From assembly GCA_045863235.1 (NCBI GenBank), contig BTUM01000010.1:1-64000 (forward strand): a stretch of DNA of 64,000 nucleotides, in the 5' to 3' direction. Positions 46,969 through 64,000 of the stretch are shown in pieces. Numbering within the stretch: position 1 is the first letter of the stretch; every line of letters starts with the position of its first letter. Source of the DNA: Candidatus Xenobia bacterium. Lineage in GTDB: Bacteria; Vulcanimicrobiota; Xenobia; Xenobiales; QWHO01. The notes under the pieces were generated by a model, which saw only the letters and a program-made list of their open reading frames with translations, was not told the origin of the DNA and did not search any database. Position numbers and translations under genes: made by a program.

Positions 46969-48119
46969 CGGGGCAGCAGGCCCTCGTACTTGGCGATGAT
47001 GTTGAGCATCACCTCATCGGCGCCGGCTCCGATGCTCAAAAGGCGCGCGTCGCGGTAGTAGCGGGCCATCGGGTATTCCTCGGCGTAGCCCATGCCGCCG
47101 TGGAACTGAACGCAGGTATCGGCCACCTCGCGCACCAGGCGGCCGGCCTTGAGCTTGGCCATGCTCACCTGGCGGGTCATGTCCTCGCCGGCCACCAGCA
47201 GGCGCGTGCAGTGATAGTTGAGCTGGCGCAACGCCTCGAGCTCGGTCAGAAGCTCGCACAGGCGGAAGTAGATCCACTGGTTCTCCACCAGAGGCTTGCC
47301 GAACACCTTGCGCTGCCGGCAGTAATCGATGGTCATCCGGATGGTCTTCTCGGCCGCGGTGACGGCCATCACCGAGCCCACCAGGCGCTCTTTCTGGAAC
47401 TGCTTCATCTGCAGCACGAAGCCGTTGCCCTCGTCGCCGATGCGGTTCTTGACCGGAACGCGGGCGTCCTCGAAGCTCAGCACGGCGGTATCAGAGGAGT
47501 GATTGCCCATCTTCTCGAGCTTGCGGCTCACCTTGAAACCGGGGGTATCGCGCGGCACCACCAGCAATGACATGCCCCGAAAGCCCCCCTCATCGGACGT
47601 GCGGCACAACACCACGATGAAGTCAGCCTGAGTGCCGTTGGTGATCCACATCTTGGAGCCGTTGACCAGGTAATCATCCCCGTCGCGCCGGGCCCGGGTG
47701 GTGATGGCGGCCACGTCCGAGCCGGCGTCCGGCTCGCTGACGGCGATGGCGGCCATCAGCTCGCCCCGGATGGCGGGTGCCAGAAAGCGCTCGCGCAGCT
47801 CGTCGGTGCCGAACTCGGCCAGGGCCGGGGTGGCCATGTCGGTGTGCACCAGGATGCCCATGGGCACGCCCATGCAGTCGGTCCTGGCCATCTCCTCGGC
47901 GAAGACGATGTTGAACCAGTAGTCCAGGCCGGCTCCGCCGTATTCGGGCGGGTAGGAGACGCCCAGCATGCCCAGCGGGCCCATCTTGCTCAGAAGCTCG
48001 CGGCCCGGGAAGATGCGCTCGGCCTCCCAGCGCTCCACATTGGGGTTGATCTCGCTCTCCACGAAGCGCCGCACGGTCTGGCGGAACATCTCGTGCTCGG
48101 GGGTGAACGTCAACTTCAC
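46965..48119 (-). CDS. Acyl-CoA dehydrogenase (AtuD-like)
   Basis: IAVSEPDAGSDVA, NGSKMWITNG, QFHGGMGY, IGAGADEVM. Confidence 0.92.
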   Translation of the reverse strand: MKLTFTPEHEMFRQTVRRFVESEINPNVERWEAERIFPGRELLSKMGPLGMLGVSYPPEYGGAGLDYWFNIVFAEEMARTDCMGVPMGILVHTDMATPALAEFGTDELRERFLAPAIRGELMAAIAVSEPDAGSDVAAITTRARRDGDDYLVNGSKMWITNGTQADFIVVLCRTSDEGGFRGMSLLVVPRDTPGFKVSRKLEKMGNHSSDTAVLSFEDARVPVKNRIGDEGNGFVLQMKQFQKERLVGSVMAVTAAEKTIRMTIDYCRQRKVFGKPLVENQWIYFRLCELLTELEALRQLNYHCTRLLVAGEDMTRQVSMAKLKAGRLVREVADTCVQFHGGMGYAEEYPMARYYRDARLLSIGAGADEVMLNIIAKYEGLLPR

Positions 48120-49982: not shown

Positions 49983-50783
49983 TTACAGGCCCAGATATTC
50001 TCGTTCCTCATAAAGACGCATCAGATTGTCAAAAAAGCTGCTCCCCTTGTCCACCATGAGCACCTGGCCGCTGACCCCATCCATCAACCCCGAGCAGAGA
50101 GCCAGGATGACGTTGGCGACCTCCTCGCACGTGATGAACTGGTTGGCGCCGAAGCGGCTGGCGAAGTCCTCGAACTCGGGGCCGAAGGTCGCCCGCAGCG
50201 ACTCGGTGCGCACCAGTCGCGAGCGAACCACGTTGATGCGGATGTCCTCAGCGTGGAGTCGAAAGTTGATGTATCGACAGAGGGTCTCCATGACGGCTTT
50301 GGAGGCGGCCACGAAGTCATAGTTCTTGTAGAAGGCGTCCGGCCCCCCGCTGGACAGACCGACGACGTAACGGGGATAACGGCCGAAGGATGCCTGGATG
50401 GCTCGGGTAATGGCGTACATGGGCCAGGCACTGTAGTGAATGCTCTGGTAGAGGGCGCGCTCCTCATAATCCTCCAGGCCCCTGACGATCAGGGCCACCG
50501 AGACGTTTGAGACAAATGCTTCCACGCCATCGTGCTCGGCTTTCATGCGGGCCAACAGCTCTTTGCTGTCCTCTTCCCGGCCGACATCGGCGCAAACGAT
50601 CCGGGGGGTCGGGAGTCCGGCGTCACGGAACTGTTTGAGGACCTCATCCTCCTCGGCCGTACCCCACTTGTGGGTCAGCCATGCCACCGCGCCCTGTCGG
50701 GCGAAAGCCAGTCCGGTCGCCAGCCCGATGCCCATGGTGGCGCCGGTGATCAGCACCGCCTTCCCGCTGAAGTCATTGATCAA
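49983..50783 (-). CDS. FabI/FabL-type enoyl-ACP reductase (SDR)
   Basis: ITGATMGIG; Y-x6-K motif YDFVAASK. Confidence 0.78.
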   Translation of the reverse strand: MINDFSGKAVLITGATMGIGLATGLAFARQGAVAWLTHKWGTAEEDEVLKQFRDAGLPTPRIVCADVGREEDSKELLARMKAEHDGVEAFVSNVSVALIVRGLEDYEERALYQSIHYSAWPMYAITRAIQASFGRYPRYVVGLSSGGPDAFYKNYDFVAASKAVMETLCRYINFRLHAEDIRINVVRSRLVRTESLRATFGPEFEDFASRFGANQFITCEEVANVILALCSGLMDGVSGQVLMVDKGSSFFDNLMRLYEEREYLGL

Positions 50784-51522
50784 GAGATTCCTCGATTCCG
50801 CTCCGAGCCTCTGGCGAGGCAAAACTCACCCGGTGCATCAGAGACTCGACGGTGTGCGTGCGCTCAAAGGCCTGGCGGCGGGGCAGGGAGAGGGTGCGTT
50901 TGAGGATCTCCAGCGCGCCGCGAGGTTTCTCGGCAAATCGGGCGGCCAGGTCCATGGCCCTTCCCAGCACCTGCTCGCGCGGCAGGATGGCATTGAAGCC
51001 GCTGCGCCCCTCGAACCAGGAGCCCTTCTTCGGCTCGCCTCCGAACAAGAGCTCGCAAGCCAGGGCCGGGGTCATGACGTGGGTGAGCAGTTCGGTGAGG
51101 CCCATTCCCGGAGTGAACCCCATGTTCATGAAACTGGCGCCATAACGGCTCTCCCGGGCGATCAGCAGGATGTCGGCGCAAATTCCCAGCGCCAGCCCTC
51201 CCCCGATGGCGTGCCCTTCCATGGCAGCGATGACGGGCACCGGAAGATCGAGCACCACCTTGGGGAGCACGATGTCGGCTGGAGCCAACCGTCCCCCCAG
51301 CAGTCCCACCAGCACCTCGCGGCTGGCACCCGAGCAGAACACCTCCGGCAGGCCGCTCAGCACGATGACGCGCAGCTCGGGCCACTCCGTGGCCGCCCGC
51401 AGGTTGGCCAGCAGAGCTTCGACAAAGGCCTCGCTCATCGCGTTCTTGCCCGCTTCGTCGCGCATCGCGATCTGGGCGATCCCGCCTTCGTGACGGAGGC
51501 ACTCGATCACCGTTTCTCCCAT
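50773..51522 (-). CDS. ECH2 (PksI-like) decarboxylase of a beta-branching cassette
   Basis: AMEGHAIGGG, YGASFMNMGFTPGMG. Confidence 0.85.
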   Translation of the reverse strand: MGETVIECLRHEGGIAQIAMRDEAGKNAMSEAFVEALLANLRAATEWPELRVIVLSGLPEVFCSGASREVLVGLLGGRLAPADIVLPKVVLDLPVPVIAAMEGHAIGGGLALGICADILLIARESRYGASFMNMGFTPGMGLTELLTHVMTPALACELLFGGEPKKGSWFEGRSGFNAILPREQVLGRAMDLAARFAEKPRGALEILKRTLSLPRRQAFERTHTVESLMHRVSFASPEARSGIEESLDQ

Positions 51523-52208
51523 GGCGCCCGGCCGTGCTCCACGAAGTCGCGCACCCGGCGCTGTACCCTGGGCTCGGCCAGCAGCTCGTCGGTGATCAGA
51601 ACGCCTCGAGCCAGCCCCTCGGCCAGCTCCAGGCGCTCGGCCTGGCTGACGAAAGAACGCAGGCGCCCCGCGCCAACGCCCCGGGCCAGATCGCGCGACC
51701 AGCGTCGGGCCACTCGCTCCAAAGAATCCTCCGGGGCGATCTCATCCACCAGGCCACTGGCCTGAGCCCACTCGGCAGTCCGACTGCTCCCGACCATGGC
51801 CAGCAGTCGAGCCTTCTGAGGAGACATCCGTTGCAGCAAGACGGGCATGATGATGGCCGGCAACAGACCGAACAGACATTCCGGCAGCCCGAAGGTAGAG
51901 CGCGGCGTGGCCAGCACCAGGTCGCAGGCCGCGGCCAGGCCCAGCCCGCCTCCCAGAGTCTCGCCGTCCACCAGGGCCACGGTCGGCACGGGAGCCTCGA
52001 CCAGGCTGGCGAGACAGGCTGCAAAATCCTGCGTGCTCGGTGTCTGGCCCATCAGGGCAAGGTCGAGGCCGCGGCAGAAGATCCCCGCCTGGCCCTCCAG
52101 CAGCCAGATCCTGGCCTCCTCCGCGGCTGCGCGCTCGAGCTGGTGGGCCAGCCCGGCCAAGGTCTCGGGCGACAGTGTCGCCGGCACCTCAATGCGCATC
52201 AGCTCCAA
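51507..52208 (-). CDS. ECH1 (PksH-like) dehydratase of a beta-branching cassette
   Basis: FCRGLDL, GGGLGLAAACD, FGLPECLFGLLPA. Confidence 0.85.
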   Translation of the reverse strand: MELMRIEVPATLSPETLAGLAHQLERAAAEEARIWLLEGQAGIFCRGLDLALMGQTPSTQDFAACLASLVEAPVPTVALVDGETLGGGLGLAAACDLVLATPRSTFGLPECLFGLLPAIIMPVLLQRMSPQKARLLAMVGSSRTAEWAQASGLVDEIAPEDSLERVARRWSRDLARGVGAGRLRSFVSQAERLELAEGLARGVLITDELLAEPRVQRRVRDFVEHGRAPWEKR

Positions 52209-53425
52209 CCATACTGGCGATAGAATTCGTGGGCACCGCGAAAGACGAGATAGCCCTTGCCGGCATAGTGTCTCTCGTACCAGTGGTCAAAGCCACTCGT
52301 GTCGGCCTCGAAGTCGCCGTCGTCGATGTGGGCCGTGCGCTCGCCCTCGGCCTGCTCATACTCCTCAACGCTGAGCCCATGGCGCTGGTCGAGCAACCTC
52401 TTGAGATCAGCGGCAGCTGCCACCGAGTGGGCCTGCGGGCCGAGCAGGCCGCTCCACATTTCCGAGCAGCACCCGGATCCGTAAGAGAACATCCCGATTC
52501 GATCCCCGGTCTCAAGCTCGGGGCACTCGTCCAGCAGGCCCAGCAGGCCCACGAAAGTGCTCGAGCCATAGGTTCCACCCAGGCGACGGATGTAGGTCAG
52601 CGAGGGTCGGGTCTTCTCGGCCCAGAGCTCATCCGCCTCAGATCGCTTGTAGCTGCCAAAGTGGCCCAGAGCCGTGCGCGTGGCCCGCAGGGTCAGCCCG
52701 CCGAAAGGCGCGTGGTAGACATTCTTTTTGAAGTAGTCGTAACCGACGCTCTGACCGAGCGTCCTGAGGTAGTCCGCCACAGCCATGTCCAGTGCTTCCA
52801 GATAACTGAGCAGGCTGGTCTCGCTGTTGCCGGTCTCTACCCGCGAGGTTGGCCGGGTGAGGTCCGAAACCTCGTTGGTGAAGATGCCGCTCTTGCCCGG
52901 CTCGATCTCCAAAAGGTCGGGCTCAGACGAGACCAGCAGGGCCGTGGCGCTGGCGCCCATCACGAACTCCCACGGCTTGCCAAAGTGGGCCCGGCTCTGA
53001 TCGGTCGAGATCACCAGAGCCTTCTTACCCGCCCCCCCGCTAGCCAGCCAGCTGGCGGCCATGTGCAAACCCGCGGTGGCTCCGTAGCACGCGTGCTTGA
53101 GCTCGAAGTTGCGGCAACGACTGGTCAGCCCCAGGTAGCGCTGGACCCAGGTGCTCATCGGCTTCTCCTGGTCCACCCCGCTCTCGCTGCCCACGATCAA
53201 GAGCTCGATCGAGGCCTTCTCTTCCTCGGTCAGCATGGGCAGGGCGGCGTTCACGGCCATGGTGACCGGGTCTTCCCAGGGTGGATTGACGCTGCGCTCG
53301 TCGATCATCATGACCTCGCGGATATTGGCCGGGTCGTGGTTGCGGGCCGCGCACAGGCGGTCCATGGGGAGGGCCATGCTGGCCGGATAAACCCGAGCCT
53401 TCTCGATGCCGACGCGCGAGCTCAT
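52199..53425 (-). CDS. HMG-CoA/HMG-ACP synthase (PksG-like)
   Basis: EDPVTMAVNAA, ELKHACYGAT, YHAPF, FSYGSGCCSE. Confidence 0.92.
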   Translation of the reverse strand: MSSRVGIEKARVYPASMALPMDRLCAARNHDPANIREVMMIDERSVNPPWEDPVTMAVNAALPMLTEEEKASIELLIVGSESGVDQEKPMSTWVQRYLGLTSRCRNFELKHACYGATAGLHMAASWLASGGAGKKALVISTDQSRAHFGKPWEFVMGASATALLVSSEPDLLEIEPGKSGIFTNEVSDLTRPTSRVETGNSETSLLSYLEALDMAVADYLRTLGQSVGYDYFKKNVYHAPFGGLTLRATRTALGHFGSYKRSEADELWAEKTRPSLTYIRRLGGTYGSSTFVGLLGLLDECPELETGDRIGMFSYGSGCCSEMWSGLLGPQAHSVAAAADLKRLLDQRHGLSVEEYEQAEGERTAHIDDGDFEADTSGFDHWYERHYAGKGYLVFRGAHEFYRQYGWS

Positions 53426-54162
53426 GGACCCCAGTCCAGCCCGCCGGTGACCGAGATGGCTTCACCATTGATATAGCTGGCGGCCTCGGAGCAAAGAAAG
53501 AGGATGGCTCGAGCCGCCTCGACAGGCTCGCCGGTGCGACCGAGCGGGTTGTAGGTTATCCAGAACTGCCGGTTGCCCTCGCTCATTCCCTCGCGGGTCA
53601 TGTCGGTCTCGATGAAACCGAGCAACACCGCGTTACTGCGGATGCCGCGGCGGCCATACTCCTTGGCCAGGGTGCTGGACAGACCGAGCAGGCCGGCCTT
53701 GCTGGCGGCGTAGGGAGCCTGACCGCTGATTCCCTTCGCCCCCATCGAGGAAACAAAAACGAGGCTGCCGCTTCGATTGGCCACCATGCCAGGGAGAAAT
53801 TGACGAGCCACAAAGAAAGAGCCCGTCAGGTTGGTATCGATGACCGTCTGCCAGGTTTCGTCCGGCATGTTGGCCGCCAGTCCGTTCAGGTTGATGCCGG
53901 CGTTACAGATCACCGCATCCACCCGGTCGAAGTCATCGAGCACCTGGTTTCCGACCTCATCGACCTGGTCCGAGTTGCGCACATCTAGAGGATAAGCCTG
54001 GCAGCGAGCCTCGGGACGGACCGCGTGGGCGGCTCGGATGACCTCCTCGGCCCGGTCGGGGCTGGTGTGGTAGGTAAAAGCCACCTCGTAGCCCTGACGA
54101 ATCGCCTCCAAAACGATGGCCTGGCCGATTCCGCGCGATCCCCCGGTGATGAAGACGTTCAC
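53422..54162 (-). CDS. 3-oxoacyl-ACP reductase (FabG-like)
   Basis: ITGGSRGIG, NAG, GQAPYAASK, GFIETDM. Confidence 0.9.
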   Translation of the reverse strand: MNVFITGGSRGIGQAIVLEAIRQGYEVAFTYHTSPDRAEEVIRAAHAVRPEARCQAYPLDVRNSDQVDEVGNQVLDDFDRVDAVICNAGINLNGLAANMPDETWQTVIDTNLTGSFFVARQFLPGMVANRSGSLVFVSSMGAKGISGQAPYAASKAGLLGLSSTLAKEYGRRGIRSNAVLLGFIETDMTREGMSEGNRQFWITYNPLGRTGEPVEAARAILFLCSEAASYINGEAISVTGGLDWGP

Positions 54163-55457
54163 GCTCCAACCTCCTCGGGCTCGGGGCGGCGTAAGATGGA
54201 CACCGAGTTGATGCCTCCGAAGCCAAACGAGTTCTTCATGACGTAGCGCATCGGATGCTCCACCACGCGCCCGCGGCAAACGTCCAGGTCGACCTCCGGG
54301 TCCAGCTCATCGATATTGATGGAAGGATGCAAGCGACCGGCGTTCATCTGCAGGATGGCTGCCACCGACTCCACCAGGGGGGCAGCCCAGCAGGTGTGGC
54401 CGAGCATGGACTTGGTCGCGTTCAGCTTGAGCTTGTAAGCGTGAGGTCCGAAGACCTTCTTGATGGACCGAATCTCGGTCAGGTCGCCGAGCGGGGTGGA
54501 GGTGGCGTGGGCATTGACGTAGTCGATCTGCTCCGGGGCCAGTTGGCAGGTTTGGAGCAGTCGCAGCATCAGCCTGGACTGACCCTCCTCGGAAGGCTGG
54601 GGCAGGTGGTTGCCGTCCGAGTTGCTCTCCACCCCGACCAGCTCGGCATGGATGCGGGCCCCCCGACGGCGGGCCGCCTCCCAGGACTCCAGCACCAGGG
54701 TGGCGCCCCCGTGGGCCGGCACGAAACCTTCCCGGCGGACGTCAAAGGGACGGCTGGCTCGGGTGGGGTCGTCGTTGAAGCTCTCAAAGGTAATGGCGCC
54801 CATCAGCGCCATGGCGTGCAGCTCCACCGGGGAAAAATCCAGCACCGCCCCCACCACCACGGCCACCTCCACCTCGTGGTAACGAATCTCGTCCACTGCC
54901 GAGCGAAGGGCGGCGTTGCCGCTCGCGCAGGCGCCTCCGATGGTGTAGATGGGGCCCATCACCGGCAGGACCTCGGAGATCGAGCCGGCATGATCGGTGT
55001 CAAGGCCCGTCAGAGCGAGCAGCGAGTCCATATAGTCCGGCTCTTCCTCGAACTGCAGCCGGTTCTGGTACTGGAAGTCGAAGTTGATGTTGTGACCGGC
55101 CACGATGGCGGCGATCCGGGATGGATCGATCTCCTGGCCGAACAGGCCCGCGTCCTGAAAGCCGTCCACCGCCAGCAGCATGGAAAGGCCGGTCGACCAG
55201 GGGGCGCGGGAAACCAGCTTGCGCAAGCGCTTGTGGACGTCGGCCGGAATCTCGCTGCTCAACCGGGCCAGTTTTGCCTTCACGTCGTAGTCGCTGAGGT
55301 CGGCTCCCACCTTGGAGTAGATCCGGGAGGTATCCCAGCGCTTCCAGTTGGAGAGGGCCGAGCGGCCCGCCAGCAAGGCCTCGAGGTAGCCCGGCAGCGT
55401 GTCCCCCAGGGGAGTGTTGATAGCCATCCCCGTGACGGCGATGCGCTCACTCCTCAA
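54159..55457 (-). CDS. Stand-alone ketosynthase (FabF/PksF-like), catalytic Cys retained
   Basis: GGACASG, NAHATSTPLGD, KSMLGH, NSFGFGG. Confidence 0.92.
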   Translation of the reverse strand: MRSERIAVTGMAINTPLGDTLPGYLEALLAGRSALSNWKRWDTSRIYSKVGADLSDYDVKAKLARLSSEIPADVHKRLRKLVSRAPWSTGLSMLLAVDGFQDAGLFGQEIDPSRIAAIVAGHNINFDFQYQNRLQFEEEPDYMDSLLALTGLDTDHAGSISEVLPVMGPIYTIGGACASGNAALRSAVDEIRYHEVEVAVVVGAVLDFSPVELHAMALMGAITFESFNDDPTRASRPFDVRREGFVPAHGGATLVLESWEAARRRGARIHAELVGVESNSDGNHLPQPSEEGQSRLMLRLLQTCQLAPEQIDYVNAHATSTPLGDLTEIRSIKKVFGPHAYKLKLNATKSMLGHTCWAAPLVESVAAILQMNAGRLHPSINIDELDPEVDLDVCRGRVVEHPMRYVMKNSFGFGGINSVSILRRPEPEEVGA

Positions 55458-55953
55458 CCAGGTAGACCTCTTGAACCGAATACGAGCAGATCGTCTCCCG
55501 GCAGAGCACCTGTCCCAGGCACAGAGCCGTGTAATCGTTCCAATCGAGGATGCGGGCCAACAAGGTCAGCTCGCTGTCGGGGCCGATGGCCTCCAGATAC
55601 TCGGCGGTGTGCACCTTGAGGGCCCGCACTCGAGACGAGCGCCCCAGCAGATAAGGCAACAGGCACAACCCGAGCTGGCCCACCATCTCGATCTGCAGCA
55701 CCCCGGGATAGACCGGCTCGCCCGGAAAGTGGCCCGCGAACACGGGGTCGCTGGCAGACACGTAGCGTCGGCCCCGAATCGATTGCTCCTCGACGCCGAT
55801 GTGGGTGATCTCGTCCAAGAACAGGAATGGTTCGCGGTGTGGGAGCATCCGCTCGATCTCCTCGCGGCCCAGAAAGACCCCCTCCCCTTGCGGAACCCAG
55901 ATGGGCTTACGCCGGGCCGACTTACCGGTGGAACGCAGCTCCAGCGGGTCCAC
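55447..55953 (-). CDS. 3-hydroxyacyl-ACP dehydratase (FabZ-like)
   Basis: LPHREPFLFLD, GHFPGEPVYPGVLQIE. Confidence 0.9.
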   Translation of the reverse strand: MDPLELRSTGKSARRKPIWVPQGEGVFLGREEIERMLPHREPFLFLDEITHIGVEEQSIRGRRYVSASDPVFAGHFPGEPVYPGVLQIEMVGQLGLCLLPYLLGRSSRVRALKVHTAEYLEAIGPDSELTLLARILDWNDYTALCLGQVLCRETICSYSVQEVYLVEE

Positions 55954-56893
55954 TCAGAAGCTCCTCCACCAGCGTCGCCATTGAAGCACCAAAATCTCCT
56001 TCTGAGTCGGTCGTGTAGCGCTTCGGATCCAGCCACTTTCTTCCAAAGAAGTCCGTAAGCACCGATTTGGGGCCGGTTTCTACGAAGATCAAGTCTTTCT
56101 CCTGCCGAGAAAGGCACTCCATGGACTCCCTCCAGCGCACCGGATTCCAGGTGTGGCGAGACAGACAATCGATGAAACCGACGCGATCGGGCTCAGCCAG
56201 GAATTCTCCCGTCAGGTTGGGCAGATAGGGGCGCTCTGGGGTCCGCCAGCAAGCCGCCTCCAGGGCCGGCCGCAGGACCTCCCCGGTGGAGCGAAAGCGG
56301 GGCGAATGCATGGGCAATCGCTCCTCGATCACGCGCGACTGGGCATAGAACTCTTCCTCGGCCTGCAGGGCCAGTCTCTCGACCAGGTCGGCCTGGCCGG
56401 AGAGGACGCACTGGCGGGGCGTGTTGTACATTCCGATGCCCACCTGCCCGTCTGTCCTGGTCCGCTCCAGGAGCTCCTCGATCTCCTCGGGACCGACCGG
56501 AAAAACTGCCGTCATGACTCCCTCGGGACCCTCCTCATAGGCCAGGCCGCGAACTTCGAGGATGCGCAGCGCCTCCTCGAAATCCAGGGCCCCGATGTGA
56601 ACCAGGTGATTGAACTCGCCCAGGCTCAGGCCAGCCGAATACTCCGCCTCCAGGCCCTGCCGCTGCAGATTCTGCCAGTGCATGTGATTGGCCAGAAAAA
56701 CCCCCAGCTGGACGTCGCGGTTGCGCTCGAACACCGTCGGATTGTCGGAGCGAAAGTGGCGCTTGAGGTCGCGTCCGAGAACGTCCGAGGCTTGCTCGAG
56801 AATGGCCAGGTTGCGGGGATCCCAGGCCAGGAGGTGGTCGAACATAGCCGGGTATCTGGAGTTTTGTCCGGGGAAGAGCAGAGCGACGGGCAT
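55922..56893 (-). CDS. Malonyl-CoA:ACP transacylase (FabD-like)
   Basis: LFPGQ, GLSLGE, PMHS, PVRW. Confidence 0.9.
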   Translation of the reverse strand: MPVALLFPGQNSRYPAMFDHLLAWDPRNLAILEQASDVLGRDLKRHFRSDNPTVFERNRDVQLGVFLANHMHWQNLQRQGLEAEYSAGLSLGEFNHLVHIGALDFEEALRILEVRGLAYEEGPEGVMTAVFPVGPEEIEELLERTRTDGQVGIGMYNTPRQCVLSGQADLVERLALQAEEEFYAQSRVIEERLPMHSPRFRSTGEVLRPALEAACWRTPERPYLPNLTGEFLAEPDRVGFIDCLSRHTWNPVRWRESMECLSRQEKDLIFVETGPKSVLTDFFGRKWLDPKRYTTDSEGDFGASMATLVEELLSGPAGAAFHR

Positions 56894-56966
56894 GGGGCTA
56901 ATGGGCTCTCGCTCGGGTCGTGCCCGGCAGCACAATCTGGCGACCGGGCCGCCACAGGCATTGCAC

Positions 56967-58235
56967 TTAGACCTGGACCCCCTTGAGCAAGCCTCTGCTG
57001 CGCATGGCCGGCACGATCACGTCGGCGATGATCCCGAGCGCCTGGTCCAGGCTCTCGCGGCTGTGCCCGGCCGTCACGCTGGCCCGGAAGCGCAACTGCT
57101 CGAGCGGGACGCTGGGATAGTCCACCGGGCTGACGAACAGGCCCCGGTCCCGGAGGGCGTGGCCCAGTTCGTAGAGCAAGGCCCGGTCGTCGCCGATCAC
57201 GATGGGAATCACGTAGCTGTTGGAATCGCCCGTATTCAGGCCCAGGCCATGGAGTTGCCGGCGGAAATAGTTGGCGTTCTCCCACAGGCGCTCTCGCCGC
57301 CACGGCTCTTCCCGGACGACCTCCAGCGCGGCCGACAGACCGGCGACCGTGGCCGGGGGCAGAGCGCACGAGAAGCCATAGGGATTGGAGTAGAAGCGCA
57401 GGTAATCGACGATCTCCGGAGTCGCAGCGGCAAAGCCCCCACACGATGAAAAGCCCTTGGAGAAGGTTCCATACTGGATGCCGACCCTCTGGCCGGCTCC
57501 AAAGTGCTCCACGACCCCCCCACCCCCGGGTCCGCAGCACAGGATGGAGTGGGCCTCATCGACCAGCATGCCCACCCGGTGGCTTTCGGCCACCTCGAGC
57601 AGGGCCGGCAGGTTGGCCATGTCGCCATCCATCGAGTAGATCCCCTCCACGATGACGATCCGGCGCTTGCCGCTCTCCCGGGTCAAGATGGCGTCCAGAG
57701 ACTGCGGGTCATTGTGCTGGAAGAAGGCCAGCCTGGCTCCCGATACCCGGACCCCGTCCACCAGCGACGTGTGGGAGCGCTCGTCGAGGACGGCGCAGTC
57801 CCCCTTGCGCAGCAGTCCGGCCACCGTCCCCAGCGCGCCGGCAAATCCGCTGTTGTAGGTCAACACGCCCTCCTGCCCGGTGAGAAGCCGAAGTCCGCTC
57901 TCCAACTGGTCGTGCAGGGTGGTTCGGCCCGAGAGGATGGGTGAGCCGCATGAGCCGGTGCCGAACTGATCGAGCGCGTCCTTGGCGGCCTGGATGATCT
58001 TTGGATGGCGCATCAGCGCCAGGTAGCCGTACGAGGCCATGTTGATGACCGACCGGGAGCCCAGTCGGCAGGTCGCTTCGGCAGCCGAGCCCAGGGAAGG
58101 CTCGTAGAGGGAGATGGCCCAGGCCACGTCGCGCCGCCACTTGAGGAAATCGGGCGGGGGAACCAGCGGATCGTCAGTCTCGGCCAGAAAAAAATCTGCC
58201 AGGCTGAACTTGTCGGATTCAGACCCTGAGTTCAT
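56967..58235 (-). CDS. PLP alpha-oxoamine synthase, serine-palmitoyltransferase-like
   Basis: SYGYL, EGIYSMDGD, VDEAHS, GTFSK. Confidence 0.85.
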   Translation of the reverse strand: MNSGSESDKFSLADFFLAETDDPLVPPPDFLKWRRDVAWAISLYEPSLGSAAEATCRLGSRSVINMASYGYLALMRHPKIIQAAKDALDQFGTGSCGSPILSGRTTLHDQLESGLRLLTGQEGVLTYNSGFAGALGTVAGLLRKGDCAVLDERSHTSLVDGVRVSGARLAFFQHNDPQSLDAILTRESGKRRIVIVEGIYSMDGDMANLPALLEVAESHRVGMLVDEAHSILCCGPGGGGVVEHFGAGQRVGIQYGTFSKGFSSCGGFAAATPEIVDYLRFYSNPYGFSCALPPATVAGLSAALEVVREEPWRRERLWENANYFRRQLHGLGLNTGDSNSYVIPIVIGDDRALLYELGHALRDRGLFVSPVDYPSVPLEQLRFRASVTAGHSRESLDQALGIIADVIVPAMRSRGLLKGVQV

Positions 58236-58238
58236 GGC

Positions 58239-58505
58239 TCAGGAGGCCGGGGCTTGTTCCTTCTGAGCGACGGTCTGGTGCAGAATGTCGACCAGGGCGT
58301 CCAGATTGGTGAGTTTGGAGAGCTCAGAGCGAGGGATCTTGACCTTCAGCTCGCGCATCGAGCAGGAAACGATCTCCACGATATCCAGGCTGTTCAGGCC
58401 CAGGTCTTTCATGGAGCGGGAGGGGTCGATCTGCGCCTCCTGGATCTCCTCGGAAATCTCCATGATGTGCTTGTTGATGACCGCTTGAATCGCTTCCCTC
58501 GTCAT
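58239..58505 (-). CDS. Acyl carrier protein (AcpK/donor-type)
   Basis: DLGLNSLD motif; GGAGG RBS. Confidence 0.9.
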   Translation of the reverse strand: MTREAIQAVINKHIMEISEEIQEAQIDPSRSMKDLGLNSLDIVEIVSCSMRELKVKIPRSELSKLTNLDALVDILHQTVAQKEQAPAS

Positions 58506-58711
58506 GATCTGGAACCTCCCGTACTCGTGGCGGGGACTTCAAAGGGTCGTGTCGGCGTTCCTTCCAACCAAAAGCCGATCCCGGCCGACGAAGGGAGGAG
58601 GGCGAGGACCAGCGCCCGGGAAGGACCAGGCGGTCAGTTGGACCTGGCCAGGGGCGAAAGGCCCGGTGGTCGCCACAGGAACTCCGTGGAAGGCCGCTAA
58701 ACTCCCTCGTT

Positions 58712-59410
58712 GTGCGAGCGGGGTTGGTAGTTCCTCGAACCATCTTTCAGACCTGGCGCAACAAGACTGCTCTGCCCCAGGATGTGGAGCCTTACGTGGC
58801 CCGTCTGCGGGACTTTTGCATCCAACACGGATTCGAGCACGTCCTGGTCGATGATGACGAAATGACGAGCTTCGTCCGTGATTCGTTCCCGGGCTATCTC
58901 CCGGTCTATAAGTCCCTGGAGACCGTGGTGGAGCGGACCGACCTCTGGCGCTACCTGATCTTGCTCCGGCACGGGGGCTTCTATCTGGACCTGGACTGCG
59001 AGATTACGGAGGCGTTCGGCCGCGTGACGGACCATTTGGACAAGCCCCTGGTCCAGGTTGAGCACGACAAGTGGCTCGACTGGGCTCGAGGCGTGTGCCA
59101 TCTTCCCCAGATTGGCCAGTTCTTTCTCGGTTTTCCCGCCGGGAGCCCGATCCTGGAGGAGGTCGTAGCGGAGGTGGTCCGTCGCCTCGAGCACAGACCT
59201 TACCGGAAGCTGGGCCGCTATCAGGAGATCCTTTTCACGACCGGACCGGGGGCCTTCGGAGAGGTCGTGTGCCGCCACCGAACCCGGGTCCACTTCTTTC
59301 GAGTCAACCAGTTGGTCGTCCACCATACGCGAGGAAACTGGGTGGGCGGGCTCAACCGGGGTCCTCTGCGATGGCTCTGGCGCCGCTGCTCTGTTCCCTA
59401 TGTCCGGTAG
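58712..59410 (+). CDS. GT32 (DXD, Och1/Sur1-like) glycosyltransferase
   Basis: VPRTIFQTW, RTDLWRYLILLRHGGFYLDLD, TTGPG, HH..G.W. Confidence 0.88.
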   Translation: MRAGLVVPRTIFQTWRNKTALPQDVEPYVARLRDFCIQHGFEHVLVDDDEMTSFVRDSFPGYLPVYKSLETVVERTDLWRYLILLRHGGFYLDLDCEITEAFGRVTDHLDKPLVQVEHDKWLDWARGVCHLPQIGQFFLGFPAGSPILEEVVAEVVRRLEHRPYRKLGRYQEILFTTGPGAFGEVVCRHRTRVHFFRVNQLVVHHTRGNWVGGLNRGPLRWLWRRCSVPYVR

Positions 59411-59522
59411 GAGTGAGAGGGTCCCGGGCCACGGGGACGGTTGACCGGTCCCACGGACCAGGAGGGCTCGGGAGCACCAGCCAGCAGCAGGAAGCCCTGG
59501 CTCGAGCCCAAAGCCTGCCTCC

Positions 59523-60494
59523 ATGCGCATCCTGGTTACCGGGGGGGGAGGGTTCATCGGCTCGGTCGTGGTCTTGAAACTGCTCGAGCAGGGCCACCAG
59601 GTGCGCTGCTACCTGCGTGACCCGACTCGGGCCCAGCGATTGCAGGGACTTGATTACGAGACCGCGCTGGGGGACATCCTGGATCCCGTGGCCACGGGGC
59701 AGGCTCTGGAAGGCTGTGAAGCGGCGATCCACCTCGCCTGCATCTCGGACTGGAGTAACATTCGCTCGGGACGGATGCAGCAGGTCGTGGTGCAGGGCAC
59801 CCGCAACGTGCTGGAGGCGGCTCGCCGGGCCGGTTGCCGCCGAGCCGTCTACGTCTCCTCCAGCCTGGCCGTCTGCGCCAGTGAGACGCCCCGGGTCTTC
59901 GACGAGTCCTCCCCCGCTTCACCCCATCTCTCCAGCCTGGTTTACGCCCGGGCCAAGGTCGAGGCCGAAGGGTTGTGCCGTGCCTTCTGTCGGGACGGAC
60001 TGGAGGTCGTGATCGTGAACCCCTGCGAGGTCTACGGGCCCAGGGATGACCGCCTGGTGACGGCCGCAAATCTGATCGATTTTGCCCGAAGCTCCCCGGT
60101 ACTGGTCTGCGACGGCGGGACGTCGGTCGTCTTCGTCGAGGACGTGGCCGAGGGGATCCTGGCCGCCCTGCAGCGCGGCACAGCAGGAGAGCGCTACATT
60201 CTGGGCGGGGAGAACCTCACGGTGCGCCAGTTGGCGGAGCTTACCCTGGAGTTGCTGGGCCGTCAGCAGAAGATCGTCAAGATGCCGAACAAGCTGCTGC
60301 GACCCATTGCCTGGCTGGGCCGCACCCTGCGCCTACCGCTGCCATTCGAGCCGGAGGTAATCCCCTACGCCACGCTCTACTGGTTCATGGACAACTCCAA
60401 GGCGTGCCGGGAGTTGAACCTGTCCTTTCGATCGGCCCGGGACACCCTGGCTCCCACCTTGCGCTGGCTGCAAGAGAGCGGCCACATTCGCTAA
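59523..60494 (+). CDS. NAD-dependent epimerase/dehydratase family reductase
   Basis: VTGGGGFIG, YARAK, VNPCEVYGP. Confidence 0.9.
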   Translation: MRILVTGGGGFIGSVVVLKLLEQGHQVRCYLRDPTRAQRLQGLDYETALGDILDPVATGQALEGCEAAIHLACISDWSNIRSGRMQQVVVQGTRNVLEAARRAGCRRAVYVSSSLAVCASETPRVFDESSPASPHLSSLVYARAKVEAEGLCRAFCRDGLEVVIVNPCEVYGPRDDRLVTAANLIDFARSSPVLVCDGGTSVVFVEDVAEGILAALQRGTAGERYILGGENLTVRQLAELTLELLGRQQKIVKMPNKLLRPIAWLGRTLRLPLPFEPEVIPYATLYWFMDNSKACRELNLSFRSARDTLAPTLRWLQESGHIR

Positions 60495-62854
60495 TCCCCC
60501 CGGGTGCCCAGCACCTGGGCGGGGTTGAGCCGGAAGATCTGGCGCAGGGGCAGGATGATCCCGGCCAGGCTGAGCAGCAGGCTGATGCCGGCCACCTGGA
60601 GCAGCGTCTTCGGTTGCAGAGCAAAGCTCAACTGAATCAGGTCACTCTGGTAGCTGTTCACCAGCCAGGCTCCCAGCGCCAGACCGGCGGGGATGCCCAC
60701 GGCCAGGCCGGCCAGCCACAGGAGCAGGGTCTCCACCACCAGCATCCTGGCCAGGATCTCATAGCGCACCCCCAGCACCAGCATGGTCACCAGCTCGTGG
60801 GTTCGCTCGGACAGATTCATCGTGGTGGTGCCCATGACCAGGGCCACCGCCAGGATGCCGGAGAAAGCAAACATCAGCCCTTCGTAGCTGGTCAACATGC
60901 GCAGGAGGTCGTCGATGTCGCCGACCATGTCGGCAAGATTGATCACCTGGGCGACCTGACCATGCTCGAGAAGTCGCCGGGCCAGGGTTCTGGCCGTGCC
61001 GGGCTGGCAGCGAACGAGCAACGTATTGACCCCGTCCGGGGGCATCGGCTCGGTCCGGGCCAGCTGCTGCTGGAGCCGGGGCAGGGCCAGCTTGAACGGG
61101 TTGCTGAGGGGCTCGAGCAGCACCGGCCCGACGCTGTAAGTGACCGGGCGAGCATCGCGAGGCGTGGTCATCCTCAGAGTGACCCGATCGCCGGGACGAA
61201 CTCCAAGCTGGCGGGCCAGAATCGGTCCCATGGTCAACTGGTCCTCGAACTGGACTGGCCGGCCCTGAAGGTCCAGAAGACGCAGCAACTGCGCCTGCTC
61301 GGGCACACCCCAGACGCTCCGTTCCACGAAGGCGGAATCCGAATCCACCCGGGAATGGCAGCGCAGGTAGTGCTCCACCCGCTCCACTCCCTTCCAACGG
61401 GAGATCGCGGGCAGGTCGGCCGGGCCGTAGATTCCACTCAAATTGACCTGGAGATCGTAGCGATGCACCTGGCTGAGGTAGTACTGCAAGGTGGAGGCCT
61501 GCCCGTCCAGAAAGGCGAGAGTCATCACGATCTGGGCCACTCCCGAGGCGATCCCCAGGACGCCGGCCAGAGTGCGCAGCGGGTGGCGCAAGAGGTTGCG
61601 TAGAGGCAGGCGAACGAGGTAGGGAAGACCGGCAAACCAGGCTCGCCCCGCTCGGACGGGCTCAAACTCGGCACGCAGGGCCTCCACCACCGGCAGGTTG
61701 ACGACCCGGCGCGTGGCCAGCCAGCCTGCCACGAGGCTGGAGCCCAGCGCCAGCCCGGCGGCCACCAGGTACCACCACGGATACAGGCTGGTCCGCACGA
61801 ACGGGATGCCCAGAACATCGCTGTAGAGGCGAGTGCAGAAGTCGGCCAACCAGCAGCCGGCCCCGATCCCCACCACCCCGGCCAGCAAGCCCAGACTGGC
61901 GCACATGCTGGCGTAGAGCCCCAGGCACTGCCACCGGGAGAACCCCAGGGCCATCAGAATGCCGATCTGACGGCGTTGCTGATTGACCACCTGCCAGAAG
62001 GCAACGAACAGAAAGAGCGAGCTCAGGGTCAAAAACAGCGACGGGAACAAGACCGCCATGGCCGCGAACGCATCCTGATCGCGCACCAGCATAGAGTAGG
62101 AGGGCTGCTGCTCCCTCATCACGGCCGGCCCGAAGAGATAGCGCTCGGCCACGGATTCGGCAGCCCGGGCCACGGCCTCCCGGTCGGCTCCCGGTCGAAT
62201 GCGAACGTGAATCTGGTGGAAACCGGCCTGGTGAGACAGTCCCTCCACCTCGCCGGGAGCACCAAAGAGGATGGCCAGGTTGCGGGCCGAGGGAATGGGG
62301 TCCTGACGGTCCTCGGCCAGCCAGATGTACTCCGGGGTGCTGACCAGACCGACCACCCGGAAGGAGGCGCGGTCCCGAACACCCTCAAATCGCAAGGTGT
62401 CTCCCAGATGAATCTGGTGGGCGGCAGCAAAGCGACGCTCCAACAAGACCTCACCCCGCCCCAAACGAAGAAGTCGCCCCTGGTGGAGGTGAACCCGGTT
62501 CACCTGCCCCTCACTGCCCGGCGGCAGACCGTGCAGGCGAGCCCGCGCATAGCGAAGGCGTCCTCTGGCGTCGCTGCCGACCACCACGCGCCCGCCGATC
62601 ACCTGGCGACCGGTGGCCACGGCCACGCCCGGCAACTGGCGAATTCGCTCCAGCACGGCCAGCGGCGCGCCCTCGACCTCCAGGGTGAAGTCCAGAAAGG
62701 CCAGTCGCTGATAGGTCAGCTCGGTGGAGAGCCGGAGGTTGAGAAAGGAAGAGTAGAAGGCTACGAAAAGGCAGACGGCCATCGTGATGATCAGCCAGGC
62801 TGCCCCAAAGGGGAGCCAGTGCTGGCGCAGGTCGCGCCAGCCCTTCAAGAGCAA
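60491..62854 (-). CDS. FtsX/MacB-like ABC permease (two-fold repeat)
   Basis: RRQIGILMALGF and ERTHELVTMLVLG motifs; multiple TM segments. Confidence 0.9.
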   Translation of the reverse strand: MLLKGWRDLRQHWLPFGAAWLIITMAVCLFVAFYSSFLNLRLSTELTYQRLAFLDFTLEVEGAPLAVLERIRQLPGVAVATGRQVIGGRVVVGSDARGRLRYARARLHGLPPGSEGQVNRVHLHQGRLLRLGRGEVLLERRFAAAHQIHLGDTLRFEGVRDRASFRVVGLVSTPEYIWLAEDRQDPIPSARNLAILFGAPGEVEGLSHQAGFHQIHVRIRPGADREAVARAAESVAERYLFGPAVMREQQPSYSMLVRDQDAFAAMAVLFPSLFLTLSSLFLFVAFWQVVNQQRRQIGILMALGFSRWQCLGLYASMCASLGLLAGVVGIGAGCWLADFCTRLYSDVLGIPFVRTSLYPWWYLVAAGLALGSSLVAGWLATRRVVNLPVVEALRAEFEPVRAGRAWFAGLPYLVRLPLRNLLRHPLRTLAGVLGIASGVAQIVMTLAFLDGQASTLQYYLSQVHRYDLQVNLSGIYGPADLPAISRWKGVERVEHYLRCHSRVDSDSAFVERSVWGVPEQAQLLRLLDLQGRPVQFEDQLTMGPILARQLGVRPGDRVTLRMTTPRDARPVTYSVGPVLLEPLSNPFKLALPRLQQQLARTEPMPPDGVNTLLVRCQPGTARTLARRLLEHGQVAQVINLADMVGDIDDLLRMLTSYEGLMFAFSGILAVALVMGTTTMNLSERTHELVTMLVLGVRYEILARMLVVETLLLWLAGLAVGIPAGLALGAWLVNSYQSDLIQLSFALQPKTLLQVAGISLLLSLAGIILPLRQIFRLNPAQVLGTRGD

Positions 62855-62868
62855 GCGGGGCAGCCTGA

Positions 62869-63126
62869 TCAGTGGCTTTGGGAGCGCGCGCGCATCAGGT
62901 CCTGCAGGTCGCCGATGGTTCTCAGGTTATCGATGTCGCTGTGCTCGAGCGTGACCCCGAGATTCTCCTCCAGGATGATCACCATCTCTACCAGTGTGAT
63001 CGAGTCCATGCCCAGATCGCGAATGGCCTGGCTCCTGGTCAGAGTGCCAACCTCCGGGAGAGCGACATGCTTGAGGGCATCGCGCAAGGCCTCGAGAAAT
63101 TGCGGGTCAAGGGGCTCCTCGCTCAT
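62869..63126 (-). CDS. Acyl carrier protein
   Basis: DLGMDSITLVE motif. Confidence 0.9.
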   Translation of the reverse strand: MSEEPLDPQFLEALRDALKHVALPEVGTLTRSQAIRDLGMDSITLVEMVIILEENLGVTLEHSDIDNLRTIGDLQDLMRARSQSH

Positions 63127-63186
63127 GGGAGCTGAGGTTTCTCGCCCAGACACACTGCCCCCTCTTTGCTCGAGTCGAAGATGCGT

Positions 63187-64000
63187 TTAGCGCAGCGCGG
63201 GCTTCTCCAGCACGCGATAGATTTTGTAGCGGCGGCCGCCCAGAATCCGGGCCAGGCTGTTCATGGGCTGGTTGTCCTCCAGCACCCAGGACACCTCCAG
63301 GGCCCGCCATTTCACGCGCACTCCCTCGCTCAAGACAGCGTTCGCCAGGGCACCGGCCACCATGGCTCCGGAGAGATCGGCGCCGAGGTCGCGCCGCACC
63401 CCCAGCGCATAGCCGCGGAAGCGGTCAATGGACTTGCGCCCCCAGAGGTAACGCAGCACGAAGCCAGGTGTGATGCGGCCTCGGGAGGCCTTGATGAGGG
63501 GGTTGTAGTTGGGGAGCAAGAACAGGCTCCCGACCTCCCGACCCTCATAGCTGGCCAGCCAGACCAGTTTCGGATCGAGAAAGTAGCGAGTCAAAAGCAG
63601 CAAGGCCTGCACCTGCTCCTCATCGATCGGCTCGAAACCCCAGTTCCCTGACAGCGCGCTGTCAAAGACCTCAGCCATGCTACGAACGTCCTCGGTGAGG
63701 CGCGAGCGATTGAGCGTGCGCACCTCGACCCCGCACTGCTCGGCTCGCTGGGCCGCCCTCCGGGCCACCTCGAGACGCGCGCTGTCGGGAAGGATCTCGT
63801 AGGCATAGAGGTCTTTGAGCTTGTGCATCCCGGCCTGCTCGAGATACTCGAGATAGTAGGCCGGGTTGTAAGGCATCAGGAAGTAAGGCTCGTACTCGAA
63901 GCCCTCCACCAGAAGGCCGCTGTAGGACTCCTCCAGACGGAAGTGGTACGGTCCTCGCATGGGAAGCTGAGGAGCCAGTTGGTGAGCTTCCTCCAACAGC
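63187..64000 (-). CDS. YghO-like GNAT protein, bacterial ceramide synthase candidate (5' end outside the window)
   Basis: GLLVEGF...MPYNPAYY...LE, NWGF.P, EVSWVLEDNQPM, YKIYRV. Confidence 0.8.
   Translation of the reverse strand, partial: LLEEAHQLAPQLPMRGPYHFRLEESYSGLLVEGFEYEPYFLMPYNPAYYLEYLEQAGMHKLKDLYAYEILPDSARLEVARRAAQRAEQCGVEVRTLNRSRLTEDVRSMAEVFDSALSGNWGFEPIDEEQVQALLLLTRYFLDPKLVWLASYEGREVGSLFLLPNYNPLIKASRGRITPGFVLRYLWGRKSIDRFRGYALGVRRDLGADLSGAMVAGALANAVLSEGVRVKWRALEVSWVLEDNQPMNSLARILGGRRYKIYRVLEKPALR

Follow-up and report, generated by a model that had tools for sequence, protein, structure and literature searches.

The question addressed here is what is made by a compact ten-gene operon of a Candidatus Xenobia bacterium (GenBank assembly GCA_045863235.1), in which genes of a type II fatty acid synthase (FAS) and of a polyketide-style beta-branching cassette stand together with an alpha-oxoamine synthase (AOS) gene. 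The sequence studied, called the window below, comprises the first 64 kb (positions 1 to 64,000) of the 127-kb contig BTUM01000010.1 (C10) of a draft genome of 8.36 Mb and 97.6% completeness. With a probability of roughly 0.6, the locus is read as a sphingolipid-type pathway leading to a ceramide or glycolipid, the base precursor of which would be supplied by a private type II FAS with the beta-branching cassette built into it. What was observed directly, and is described in turn, is which genes are present, their homologies, the conservation of their linkage and the swapping of modules. Gene families were assigned by Pfam and NCBIfam scans, and the curated cut-offs given are those of NCBIfam.

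The operon runs on the minus strand from 58505 to 49983 in the order acyl carrier protein (ACP1), AOS, acyltransferase (AT), FabZ, ketosynthase (KS), FabG, 3-hydroxy-3-methylglutaryl (HMG)-ACP synthase (HMGS), two crotonases (ECH1 and ECH2) and an enoyl reductase (ER) of the short-chain dehydrogenase/reductase (SDR) type. Adjoining genes abut or overlap, with a gap of at most 31 bases. All ten genes of this tightly spaced operon, and the five flanking genes listed with them in a first-pass annotation (a GT32 glycosyltransferase, an NAD-dependent reductase, an ABC permease, a second ACP and a YghO-like GNAT), were recovered in their places, the GT32 gene being on the plus strand and the GNAT gene extending beyond the window. 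The observation is confirmed in this respect, and the interpretation attached to it, a methyl-branched glycosphingolipid system, is partly supported by the analyses below.

HMGS (52199-53425, minus strand) is of the polyketide (CurD/PksG) type; its closest solved structures are CurD (261 bits) and PksG (246 bits), and true HMG-CoA synthases score at most 187 bits against it. Glu81, Cys113 and His238, which we take to be the catalytic residues, are invariant in the alignment of HMGS relatives (A2). ECH2 (50773-51522, minus strand), the decarboxylating crotonase of the cassette, exceeded the cut-off of PRK07110 (261 bits, cut-off 215), and its top solved structures are PksI (157 bits) and the ECH2 of CurF (135 bits). 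ECH1 (51507-52208, minus strand), the dehydrating crotonase, was assigned at family level only (PF00378, E = 5e-31; top NCBIfam model PRK07112, 128 bits, below the cut-off of 250). The KS (54159-55457, minus strand) is FabF-like with an intact Cys177-His317-His354 triad; its top NCBIfam model is the polyketide KS PRK07103 (355 bits, below the cut-off of 445), and its closest solved relatives are FabF. It is the most conserved gene of the family, with 56-79% identity across related loci, and the triad is present in every covering homologue (Cys in 46/46, His in 52/52 and 54/54). The earlier description of a PksG/H/I/AcpK-type cassette holds for HMGS, nearest to CurD/PksG, and for ECH2, nearest to PksI/CurF, but not for the KS, which keeps Cys-His-His, so that the cassette is not a standard one of the PksF type. 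The best models for KS, ECH1 and ACP1 (PRK07103, PRK07112 and PRK07117) would, by their names and numbering, belong to one bacillaene cassette series, all three matches being below cut-off.

The remaining operon genes, all on the minus strand, provide the parts of a fatty acid synthase and its off-loading enzyme. The AT (55922-56935) is FabD-like, of the malonyl-CoA:ACP transacylase type (PF00698; TIGR00128, 129 bits, below cut-off), and is kept ahead of FabZ-KS in related loci; it is followed by a FabZ-like 3-hydroxyacyl-ACP dehydratase (55447-55953; PF07977, E = 1.6e-15; FabZ models 66-73 bits, below cut-offs). FabG (53422-54279) is of the 3-ketoacyl-ACP reductase type (PF13561, E = 1e-56; TIGR01830, 225 bits, below cut-off), and the family match opens at residue 42, which puts its real start probably near 54156. 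The last gene, ER (49983-50822), encodes an SDR-type, FabL-like enoyl-ACP reductase (PF13561, E = 3e-30; top NCBIfam model FabL, 99 bits, below cut-off), orthologues of which, with 62-70% identity, sit after ECH2 in related loci, mostly together with a second paralogue. The first gene encodes the dedicated ACP1 (58239-58505; PF00550; top NCBIfam model PRK07117, below cut-off with 61 bits against 79), to which the one ACP present in related loci is 53-67% identical. AOS (56967-58235; PF00155) follows it after 3 bases and is translationally coupled to it; it is probably similar to serine palmitoyltransferase (Spt), and an enzyme of this kind presumably converts acyl-ACP and an amino acid into a 2-amino-3-ketoalkane. 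Elsewhere the genome encodes a canonical FabF, three FabH and, on contigs C19 and C17, two FabZ-like proteins, so that the operon constitutes an extra FAS set.

For the analysis of linkage, metagenomes were scanned with the HMGS alignment, by which 162 relatives were confirmed and the best 80 kept, and the cluster proteins were compared by tblastn with 78 soil-metagenome contigs (the 80 minus 2 from the window's own genus). The core AT-FabZ-KS-FabG-HMGS-ECH1-ECH2-ER-ACP was collinear in the 78 contigs and in two loci from Myxococcota metagenome-assembled genomes (MAGs). FabG was found beside HMGS in 74 of the 78 contigs, ECH1 in 49 (immediately after HMGS), KS in 46, ECH2 in 38, FabZ in 33, AT in 29, ACP in 26, AOS in 24, ER in 18, GNAT in 11 and the reductase similar to CerR in 6, most of the contigs being short and the absences largely due to truncation. 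The adjacency of AOS rises with contig size, to 19/30 at >=7 kb and 11/15 at >=12 kb. Among the 15 loci of >=12 kb, KS was present in 14, ER in 13, ACP in 13, AOS in 11, GNAT in 5 and the reductase in 5, and two of the four loci of this size without AOS (L084 and L134) are cut on the side on which AOS is expected. The synteny of HMGS, ECH and AOS envisaged in the first-pass annotation is borne out by these counts, the FAS/HMGS core being repeatedly linked with AOS, a YghO/bCerS-like GNAT and a CerR-like reductase.

Two layouts were distinguished among the longer loci. Type A has the order AOS-AT-FabZ-KS-FabG-HMGS-ECH1-ECH2-ER-ACP-ER-reductase-PPTase-desaturase-MMPL-hydroxylase-GNAT (PPTase, phosphopantetheinyl transferase) with an AOS 52-70% identical to that of the window; type B has the order ER-ER-AT-FabZ-KS-FabG-HMGS-ECH1-ECH2-ACP-AOS-PPTase-GNAT-GT2-reductase with an AOS only 34-39% identical. 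That the same core is joined to two AOS lineages argues for functional coupling. Further genes in the long loci are those for a PPTase, a desaturase and a hydroxylase acting on fatty acids, an exporter of the MMPL type, a LolA-like protein and glycosyltransferases of families GT2 or GT4. In L012, a 2-oxoacid-dehydrogenase-type acyltransferase is encoded ahead of AOS.

The distribution of the operon is patchy. Carriers were seen in Eremiobacterota, in Myxococcota (type A in one Myxococcales MAG and one Polyangia MAG) and in many soil contigs; Acidobacteriota are suggested only by source names, two close AOS homologues being named Vicinamibacterales (compared as single genes). HMGS was present in 3/401 sampled genomes of the window's own phylum, all of the same genus, and in a fourth member of the genus AOS is interrupted by the contig end. 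The AOS of the loci L008 and L009, from the same genus, is 94-95% identical to that of the window. In Myxococcota, HMGS was detected at E<=1e-100 in 9/401 sampled genomes, only one of them with >=65% identity. Proteins related to HMGS at E<=1e-60 numbered 995 among those tested, and among the 120 HMGS homologues listed, all eight with organism names (8/8) were from Myxococcota.

A comparison within the genus shows a swap of modules. No HMGS was detected at E<=1e-30 in the congener G054 (97% complete). A block comprising GNAT...GT4...ABC...FtsX...HlyD...ACP2-like genes is collinear between G054 and G104, with 75-78% DNA identity. In G104, this block terminates at the ACP1-AOS-...-HMGS-...-ER operon, where G054 has genes unrelated to it. 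The opposite end of the block in G054, beside GNAT (L168:28-4074, contig C74), carries the ER-KR-ACP tail of a type I polyketide synthase (PKS), cut by the contig start, an AOS of 37% identity and an SDR gene. The same downstream module stands beside one predicted chain factory in G104 and beside another in G054, each factory having an AOS of its own, and by this arrangement the factory is exchangeable; no other single argument for the role proposed here is considered as strong as this swap.

A further AOS in the window's own genome was found in a fusion protein of 1318 aa with the domain order KS-(AT)-ACP-AOS (contig C7, 62109-66065; L004:10109-14065, minus strand), encoded next to a gene similar to that of myo-inositol-1-phosphate synthase and a radical SAM gene. 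This fusion may represent a second, PKS-type sphingoid-base synthase tied to an inositol head group.

The identity of the window AOS was examined with curated models, by maximum-likelihood phylogeny and by gene context. Its closest solved structure is the Sphingobacterium SPT (253 bits), with a Thermus BioF/Kbl enzyme near at 246 bits. The curated BioF, Kbl-related and Spt models spread over 224-318 bits, all below cut-off, and are likewise ambiguous for the desaturase-linked verrucomicrobial AOSs described below; the BioF model gave 313 bits (cut-off 426), and the autoinducer-synthase model was the lowest of the AOS families (196 bits, cut-off 428). A biotin role is excluded, because no BioB over the cut-off (best 40.7 bits, cut-off 225) and no BioD match was found in the 97.6% complete genome (the search covering BioB and BioD, and not BioA). 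The genome contains only two AOS-family genes, that of the window and the C-terminal domain of the KS-AT-ACP-AOS fusion on contig C7, and no tdh gene was found among the operon neighbours. A 'PATP loop' motif of the Sphingomonas SPT was considered as a test for Spt and dropped, as it is not kept even in the Sphingobacterium SPT.

The AOS tree comprised 43 rows with one canonical Spt (Sphingomonas) and no true BioF, HemA or Bacteroidota Spt, and joins between long branches were flagged. The window AOS falls in a clade (support 100/100) of 17 sequences, formed by the HMGS-linked AOSs except those of type B and by six verrucomicrobial AOSs; the AOSs of type B are sister to it, on long branches (96/93). 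The references for Kbl and TIGR01825, among them two encoded next to tdh, form their own clade (99/94), parted from the window's clade by a 96/93 branch. The tree excludes Kbl and is neutral as to an Spt origin. The verrucomicrobial AOSs are the nearest relatives without HMGS (53-55% identity). A GNAT-family gene lies about 1 kb off in 7/7 of their loci, and in the three annotated (L010, L011 and L016) AOS directly follows a sphingolipid delta-4 desaturase (PF08557), with CDP-alcohol transferases near and a hydroxylase in one. We regard context as more telling here than the models, and on that basis AOS is predicted to be probably Spt-like.

The same context was followed for the two remaining ceramide-type candidates. 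The GNAT gene (63187-64000 in the window and to 64275 on contig C10, minus strand; 362 aa in full) encodes a YghO-type, bCerS-like candidate N-acyltransferase, and the CerR-like candidate (59523-60494, plus strand) is an extended SDR reductase of the epimerase family (PF01370, E = 2.5e-37; top NCBIfam model HpnA, 226 bits, below the cut-off of 368). Orthologues of the latter occur with 57-59% identity in five loci of type A, one type B locus has a match of 30%, and several paralogues are encoded in the genome. A replicon (plasmid) of Sphingomonas parapaucimobilis carrying Spt was used as the reference ceramide locus and compared by BLASTP pairs. GNAT matched the Sphingomonas N-acetyltransferase over its full length (26% identity, E = 5e-30), the CerR-like reductase matched an NAD(P)H-binding protein encoded beside ACP and Spt (31% over 279 residues, E = 1e-19), and AOS matched Spt (34%, E = 1e-65). 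In the Sphingomonas locus, the GNAT homologue stands after LptF, LptG and a desaturase, with the NAD(P)H-binding protein, ACP and Spt encoded a few kb away, a layout like the cerR-acpR-spt ... lptF2-lptG2-cerS arrangement given for Caulobacter in the available text of PMC11324152.

Judged against the Sphingomonas reference, the GNAT shows on sequence both the homology to an N-acyltransferase of a sphingolipid locus and the linkage to Spt/AOS that mark a bCerS-type enzyme. Its family adjoins AOS in Rubrobacter, in Verrucomicrobia and in 11 HMGS-linked contigs; a Rubrobacter plasmid carries the triad AOS-GNAT-oxidoreductase, and on Roseomonas plasmids GNAT stands among a sterol-desaturase-family gene, LptFG, and genes of the CDP-alcohol transferase and diacylglycerol-kinase families. 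The closest GNAT homologue is from 'bacterium CPR1', and a search of the ESM Atlas returned only generic 'N-acetyltransferase' clusters. A full-length homologue of the GNAT family found in sphingolipid loci is also E. coli YghO (26% identity, E of about 3e-32), and E. coli is not known as a sphingolipid maker. A GNAT paralogue with 44% identity was located on contig C7 (81.7-90.7 kb; L005) amid genes for PAP2, a PhyH dioxygenase, LicD, an MsbA-like ABC transporter, an NTP transferase, a protein-kinase-fold protein and GT28, and this region looks like a second ceramide-type head-group cluster.

From these genes we infer every chemical step of the following scheme, including the choice of amino acid, the length of the chain and the place of the branch. 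Malonate would be loaded by AT onto ACP1. The Cys-active KS would decarboxylate it to give acetyl-ACP and would also carry out condensation to beta-ketoacyl-ACP; both activities of the KS, and the use of one ACP as donor and acceptor, are deduced from the retained triad and from the presence, in most loci, of one KS and one ACP. One beta-keto group would be converted into a methyl branch by HMGS, ECH1, ECH2 and the SDR ER. Acetoacetyl-ACP is the most likely acceptor, and from it would come an isovaleryl-ACP primer and a chain with an iso terminus; CurD, the closest solved HMGS, acts on acetoacetyl-ACP, and this point was counted for an iso-terminal branch only. The chain would then be lengthened on the same ACP by KS, FabG, FabZ and ER. 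That AT, FabG, FabZ and ER are present throughout speaks for an iterative synthesis carried by the private ACP, and the rarity of an acyl-activating enzyme (2 loci) argues for synthesis de novo. The Spt-like AOS would join the acyl-ACP to an amino acid, probably serine, after which an N-acyl chain would be added by the YghO/bCerS-like GNAT, with ACP2 as the possible donor, the 3-keto group would be reduced by the CerR-like reductase, sugars would be added by GT32, GT4 and PMT_2 enzymes, and the product would be moved outward via a MurJ-like flippase and the FtsX permease.

Several observations weigh against this scheme. Cassette KSs carry a Cys-to-Ser exchange, and acceptor ACPs in modular PKSs bear a flagging tryptophan; here the triad is intact in the window and in each covering homologue, and no tryptophan was found in ACP1 or ACP2. 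In the available text of PMC10006238 and PMC12560621, the canonical cassette KS is described as condensation-inactive. With a single Cys-active KS and usually a single ACP, the donor-acceptor logic is deduced, FabG would compete with HMGS for each beta-keto intermediate, and nothing seen would fix the branch position. The Spt-like role of AOS implied in the first-pass annotation withstands the objections that the enzyme might be BioF (no BioB over the cut-off and no BioD) or Kbl (a separate clade in the tree). A plain Spt label is disfavoured by the scores, all of them short of the Spt cut-offs in NCBIfam (299 bits where 640 is required, 271 where 500 is and 224 where 670 is), and by the tree, in which the Sphingomonas Spt joins the Rubrobacter AOS (92/91) outside the window's clade. 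With the BioF and Kbl-related models AOS reaches 313-318 bits, as well as the 299 bits of Spt; the Sphingomonas Spt itself reaches 833 bits on its model (cut-off 670). No BLASTP alignment of ACP1 with the ACP of the Sphingomonas locus was obtained at E<=10, and no GNAT homologue was found at E<=1e-10 in the operon-carrying Myxococcota MAGs. Two loci (L100 and L103) carry the core without AOS in the stretch at hand, and in one of them (L103:12193-15759) a protein of 1188 aa, KS-...-thioester reductase (NAD_binding_4), stands in the place of AOS together with a second KS, which suggests a predicted variant with reductive release of the branched chain. Given this exchange of AOS, the core is best seen as a branched-acyl-ACP factory with exchangeable off-loading.

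Several other explanations were weighed against the sphingolipid pathway with an iso-terminal base. The same pathway could operate with no iso primer, the cassette acting on one or several later beta-ketoacyl-ACPs and giving a base with a mid-chain or head-proximal branch or, were branch and normal cycles to alternate, a multi-methyl, isoprenoid-like base. The operon does hold a full normal cycle (KS, FabG, FabZ, ER) in addition to a full branch cycle (HMGS, ECH1, ECH2, ER), two ER paralogues occur in most related loci (an ER match in 13/15 loci >=12 kb), and in two type A loci (L126 and L116) an AMP-binding acyl-activating enzyme encoded just upstream of AOS could load a preformed fatty acid. 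Such late branching is nevertheless considered unlikely: the AMP-binding gene is confined to these 2 loci whereas the malonyl-type AT is general, which fits synthesis de novo, no visible feature would program alternating cycles, and the sequence is silent on the acceptor length of HMGS. An AasR-like AMP-binding loader as a general trait of the family was rejected for the same reason. It is improbable, to a higher degree, that the operon serves a small-molecule or signal pathway in which AOS makes an alpha-aminoketone from a short branched acyl-ACP, in the manner of CqsA/LqsA or of PKS-release AOSs, and that GNAT, the reductase and the glycosyltransferases form an unrelated envelope cluster. 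HMGS cassettes otherwise come from natural-product PKSs, as far as the available text of PMC12560621 and PMC10006238 goes, and the patchy distribution (3/401 and, at E<=1e-100, 9/401), the distance of 16.5 kb between operon and GNAT in the congener locus L008, the Myxococcota MAGs without a detectable GNAT and the reductase release of L103 are in line with such a role. Against it, the linkage with GNAT, CerR-like reductase, desaturase, hydroxylase, MMPL and LolA-like genes recurs in independent layouts, the FabG, FabZ and ER cycle is always complete, which points to long saturated chains, the autoinducer-synthase model gives the lowest score (196 bits, cut-off 428), and the nearest HMGS-free relatives of AOS lie in sphingolipid-type clusters.

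It is very improbable that the product of the FAS/HMGS module is the N-acyl chain, or some other acyl group of a lipid, with AOS taking ordinary acyl-ACP or acyl-CoA. The position of ACP2 beside GNAT makes acyl-ACP donors plausible, and L100 and L103 have the core without AOS; yet AOS lies inside the operon, coupled to ACP1 across 3 bases, the type B AOS directly follows the only ACP of its operon, and GNAT is farther off, often on the opposite strand, or absent. The idea that AOS is a housekeeping BioF/Kbl, or that the cassette serves a modular PKS just outside the window, could draw on the 313-318 bits of the BioF and Kbl-related models against 299 for Spt and on PKS-sized frames with KS domains on five other contigs of the genome. 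It is largely refuted by the lack of BioB over cut-off and of BioD in the 97.6% complete genome, by the separate 99/94 clade of Kbl and TIGR01825, and by the surroundings of the operon. The absence of a modular PKS from the window, already noted in the first-pass annotation, was found to extend over the whole 127-kb contig, where the only KS other than that of the operon, past 64 kb, is FabF-like and encoded by a gene standing alone (82.2-83.4 kb). Nor does a modular PKS adjoin the core in the nine long relatives of the locus that were annotated; in L103 there is a single KS-...-reductase protein.

The genes around the operon were annotated in the same way. The GT32-type glycosyltransferase (58712-59410, plus strand; PF04488, E = 1.7e-10) has a DXD motif and a GC content at third codon positions of 0.77; it is 99.6% identical at the amino-acid level in two contigs of the same species (L007 and L082) and is missing from the congeneric locus L009. 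A minus-strand reading frame over it (58697-59557, 286 aa, low complexity) is probably no gene, as it matches no family and its conservation in a contig of the same species (92%) falls below that of the neighbouring genes (98-99%). Beyond the CerR-like gene lies a duplicated FtsX/MacB-type ABC permease (60491-62854, minus strand; two FtsX and two MacB_PCD stretches), a candidate lipid exporter with a counterpart of 41% identity in congeneric variant loci. It is followed by ACP2 (62869-63153, minus strand; PF00550, E = 1.5e-9), which adjoins GNAT and has a counterpart of 55-60% identity retained in congeneric loci with or without the HMGS operon. The cluster reaches about 73 kb on the contig, with three GT4 genes, a MurJ-like flippase and two PMT_2 (ArnT-like) genes past 64 kb.

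On the other side of the operon, genes for a CrtC-like lipocalin protein (PF07143 and Lipocalin_9), an ABC ATPase and a protein of 288 aa were found at 42082-44676 (minus strand), and the ATPase may be the missing partner of the FtsX permease or unrelated to it. Nearer to the operon (45112-48119, minus strand) lie genes for an acyl-CoA dehydrogenase and for a biotin carboxylase with a weak methylcrotonyl-CoA carboxylase BT domain, and a carboxyltransferase and a BKACE enzyme are encoded 30 kb further on (contig C10, 83619-85839). These genes resemble leucine/isovalerate catabolism and stand near an operon that possibly makes isovaleryl groups, which may be coincidence.

If the sphingolipid reading is correct, the locus would provide the first beta-branching chemistry outside modular PKSs for a membrane lipid and a leucine-independent, ACP-bound route to methyl-branched chains. 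As the operon is common in soil metagenomes, its product could be an abundant unassigned soil lipid. The exchange of PKS+AOS for FAS+HMGS+AOS within one genus is a ready comparative experiment, and the minimal dissociated cassette, with one KS and one ACP, is a simple system in which beta-branching could be studied and engineered. A wider proposal is put forward as speculation that we consider doubtful: a polyketide beta-branching cassette would have been taken into primary membrane-lipid synthesis, and a self-contained 'branched sphingoid-base synthase' operon, providing acetate-derived methyl branches, would have spread horizontally among soil bacteria. In its boldest form, branch and normal cycles would alternate to give an isoprenoid-like, multi-methyl sphingoid base. 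Lipids of this class would be overlooked parts of soil lipidomes and possible biomarkers.

Among known systems, the ceramide pathway of Caulobacter and Sphingomonas (Spt, AcpR, AasR, CerR, bCerS/CerS), the gene roles of which are given for Caulobacter in the available text of PMC11324152 and PMC11087976, shares with the locus an AOS next to a dedicated ACP, a reductase of the epimerase family and a GNAT of the YghO type, and has transporter genes and genes for glycosyl or head groups in the vicinity. It differs in that no AasR acyl-ACP synthetase is present here and the chain would be built on ACP by a whole type II FAS and HMGS cassette; in the exporters, which are FtsX in the window and MMPL in related loci instead of LptF2 and LptG2; and in the proteins themselves, AOS being 34% identical to the Sphingomonas Spt and of another clade, and ACP1 giving no BLASTP alignment. 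The bacillaene (AcpK/PksF/G/H/I) and curacin (CurB-F) cassettes share with the operon HMGS, ECH1, ECH2 and a small ACP, with best matches to PKS cassette proteins, and the expected chemistry of aldol addition, dehydration and decarboxylation. Unlike these cassettes, the operon has no modular PKS acceptor, its KS has Cys-His-His and is probably condensing, one ACP would usually be both donor and acceptor, and FabG, FabZ, the SDR ER and AOS share the operon.

A dedicated, non-housekeeping chain factory coupled to an AOS is likewise seen in SgaAB, a layout found also in G054 and in the C7 fusion; there an iterative type I PKS takes the place of the dissociated type II system and HMGS cassette. 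Two further systems offer likeness in logic. In the myxobacterial alternative isovaleryl-CoA pathway (MvaS, LiuC, AibA/B, AibC), acetoacetyl, HMG, methylglutaconyl, dimethylacrylyl and isovaleryl thioesters follow one another and lead to leucine-independent iso-branched lipids; its chemical logic is the same, but it uses CoA thioesters, a true HMG-CoA synthase and another decarboxylase, whereas the intermediates here would be ACP-bound and handled by a PKS-type HMGS, ECH1 and ECH2. The rhizobial acpXL-fabZXL-fabF1XL/F2XL cluster, a dedicated type II FAS for the very-long-chain hydroxy acid of lipid A, likewise has a private ACP, KS, dehydratase and reductase beside the acyltransferase that uses the product, without an HMGS cassette and without AOS. 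The chain sources known for bacterial sphingolipids, a pathway worked out only recently, are the housekeeping FAS (by acyl-CoA, or by AasR and AcpR) and, since 2025, an iterative PKS. In the available text of PMC12134224, sphingolipids of Pseudomonas fluorescens MYb115 are made by SgaAB, a PKS with an AOS of Spt activity; beta-branching is unreported there, 'HMG' occurring 0 times in the main text. The combination of HMGS, type II FAS and AOS, which the first-pass annotation did not know as a described pathway, was met in no paper of the literature searched, most subscription journals lying outside that search. Set beside these systems, a private type II FAS with an HMGS cassette suggests a third chain source for sphingolipids, and the locus is considered a candidate new variant of bacterial sphingolipid synthesis, partly supported by its sequence and pending lipid chemistry.

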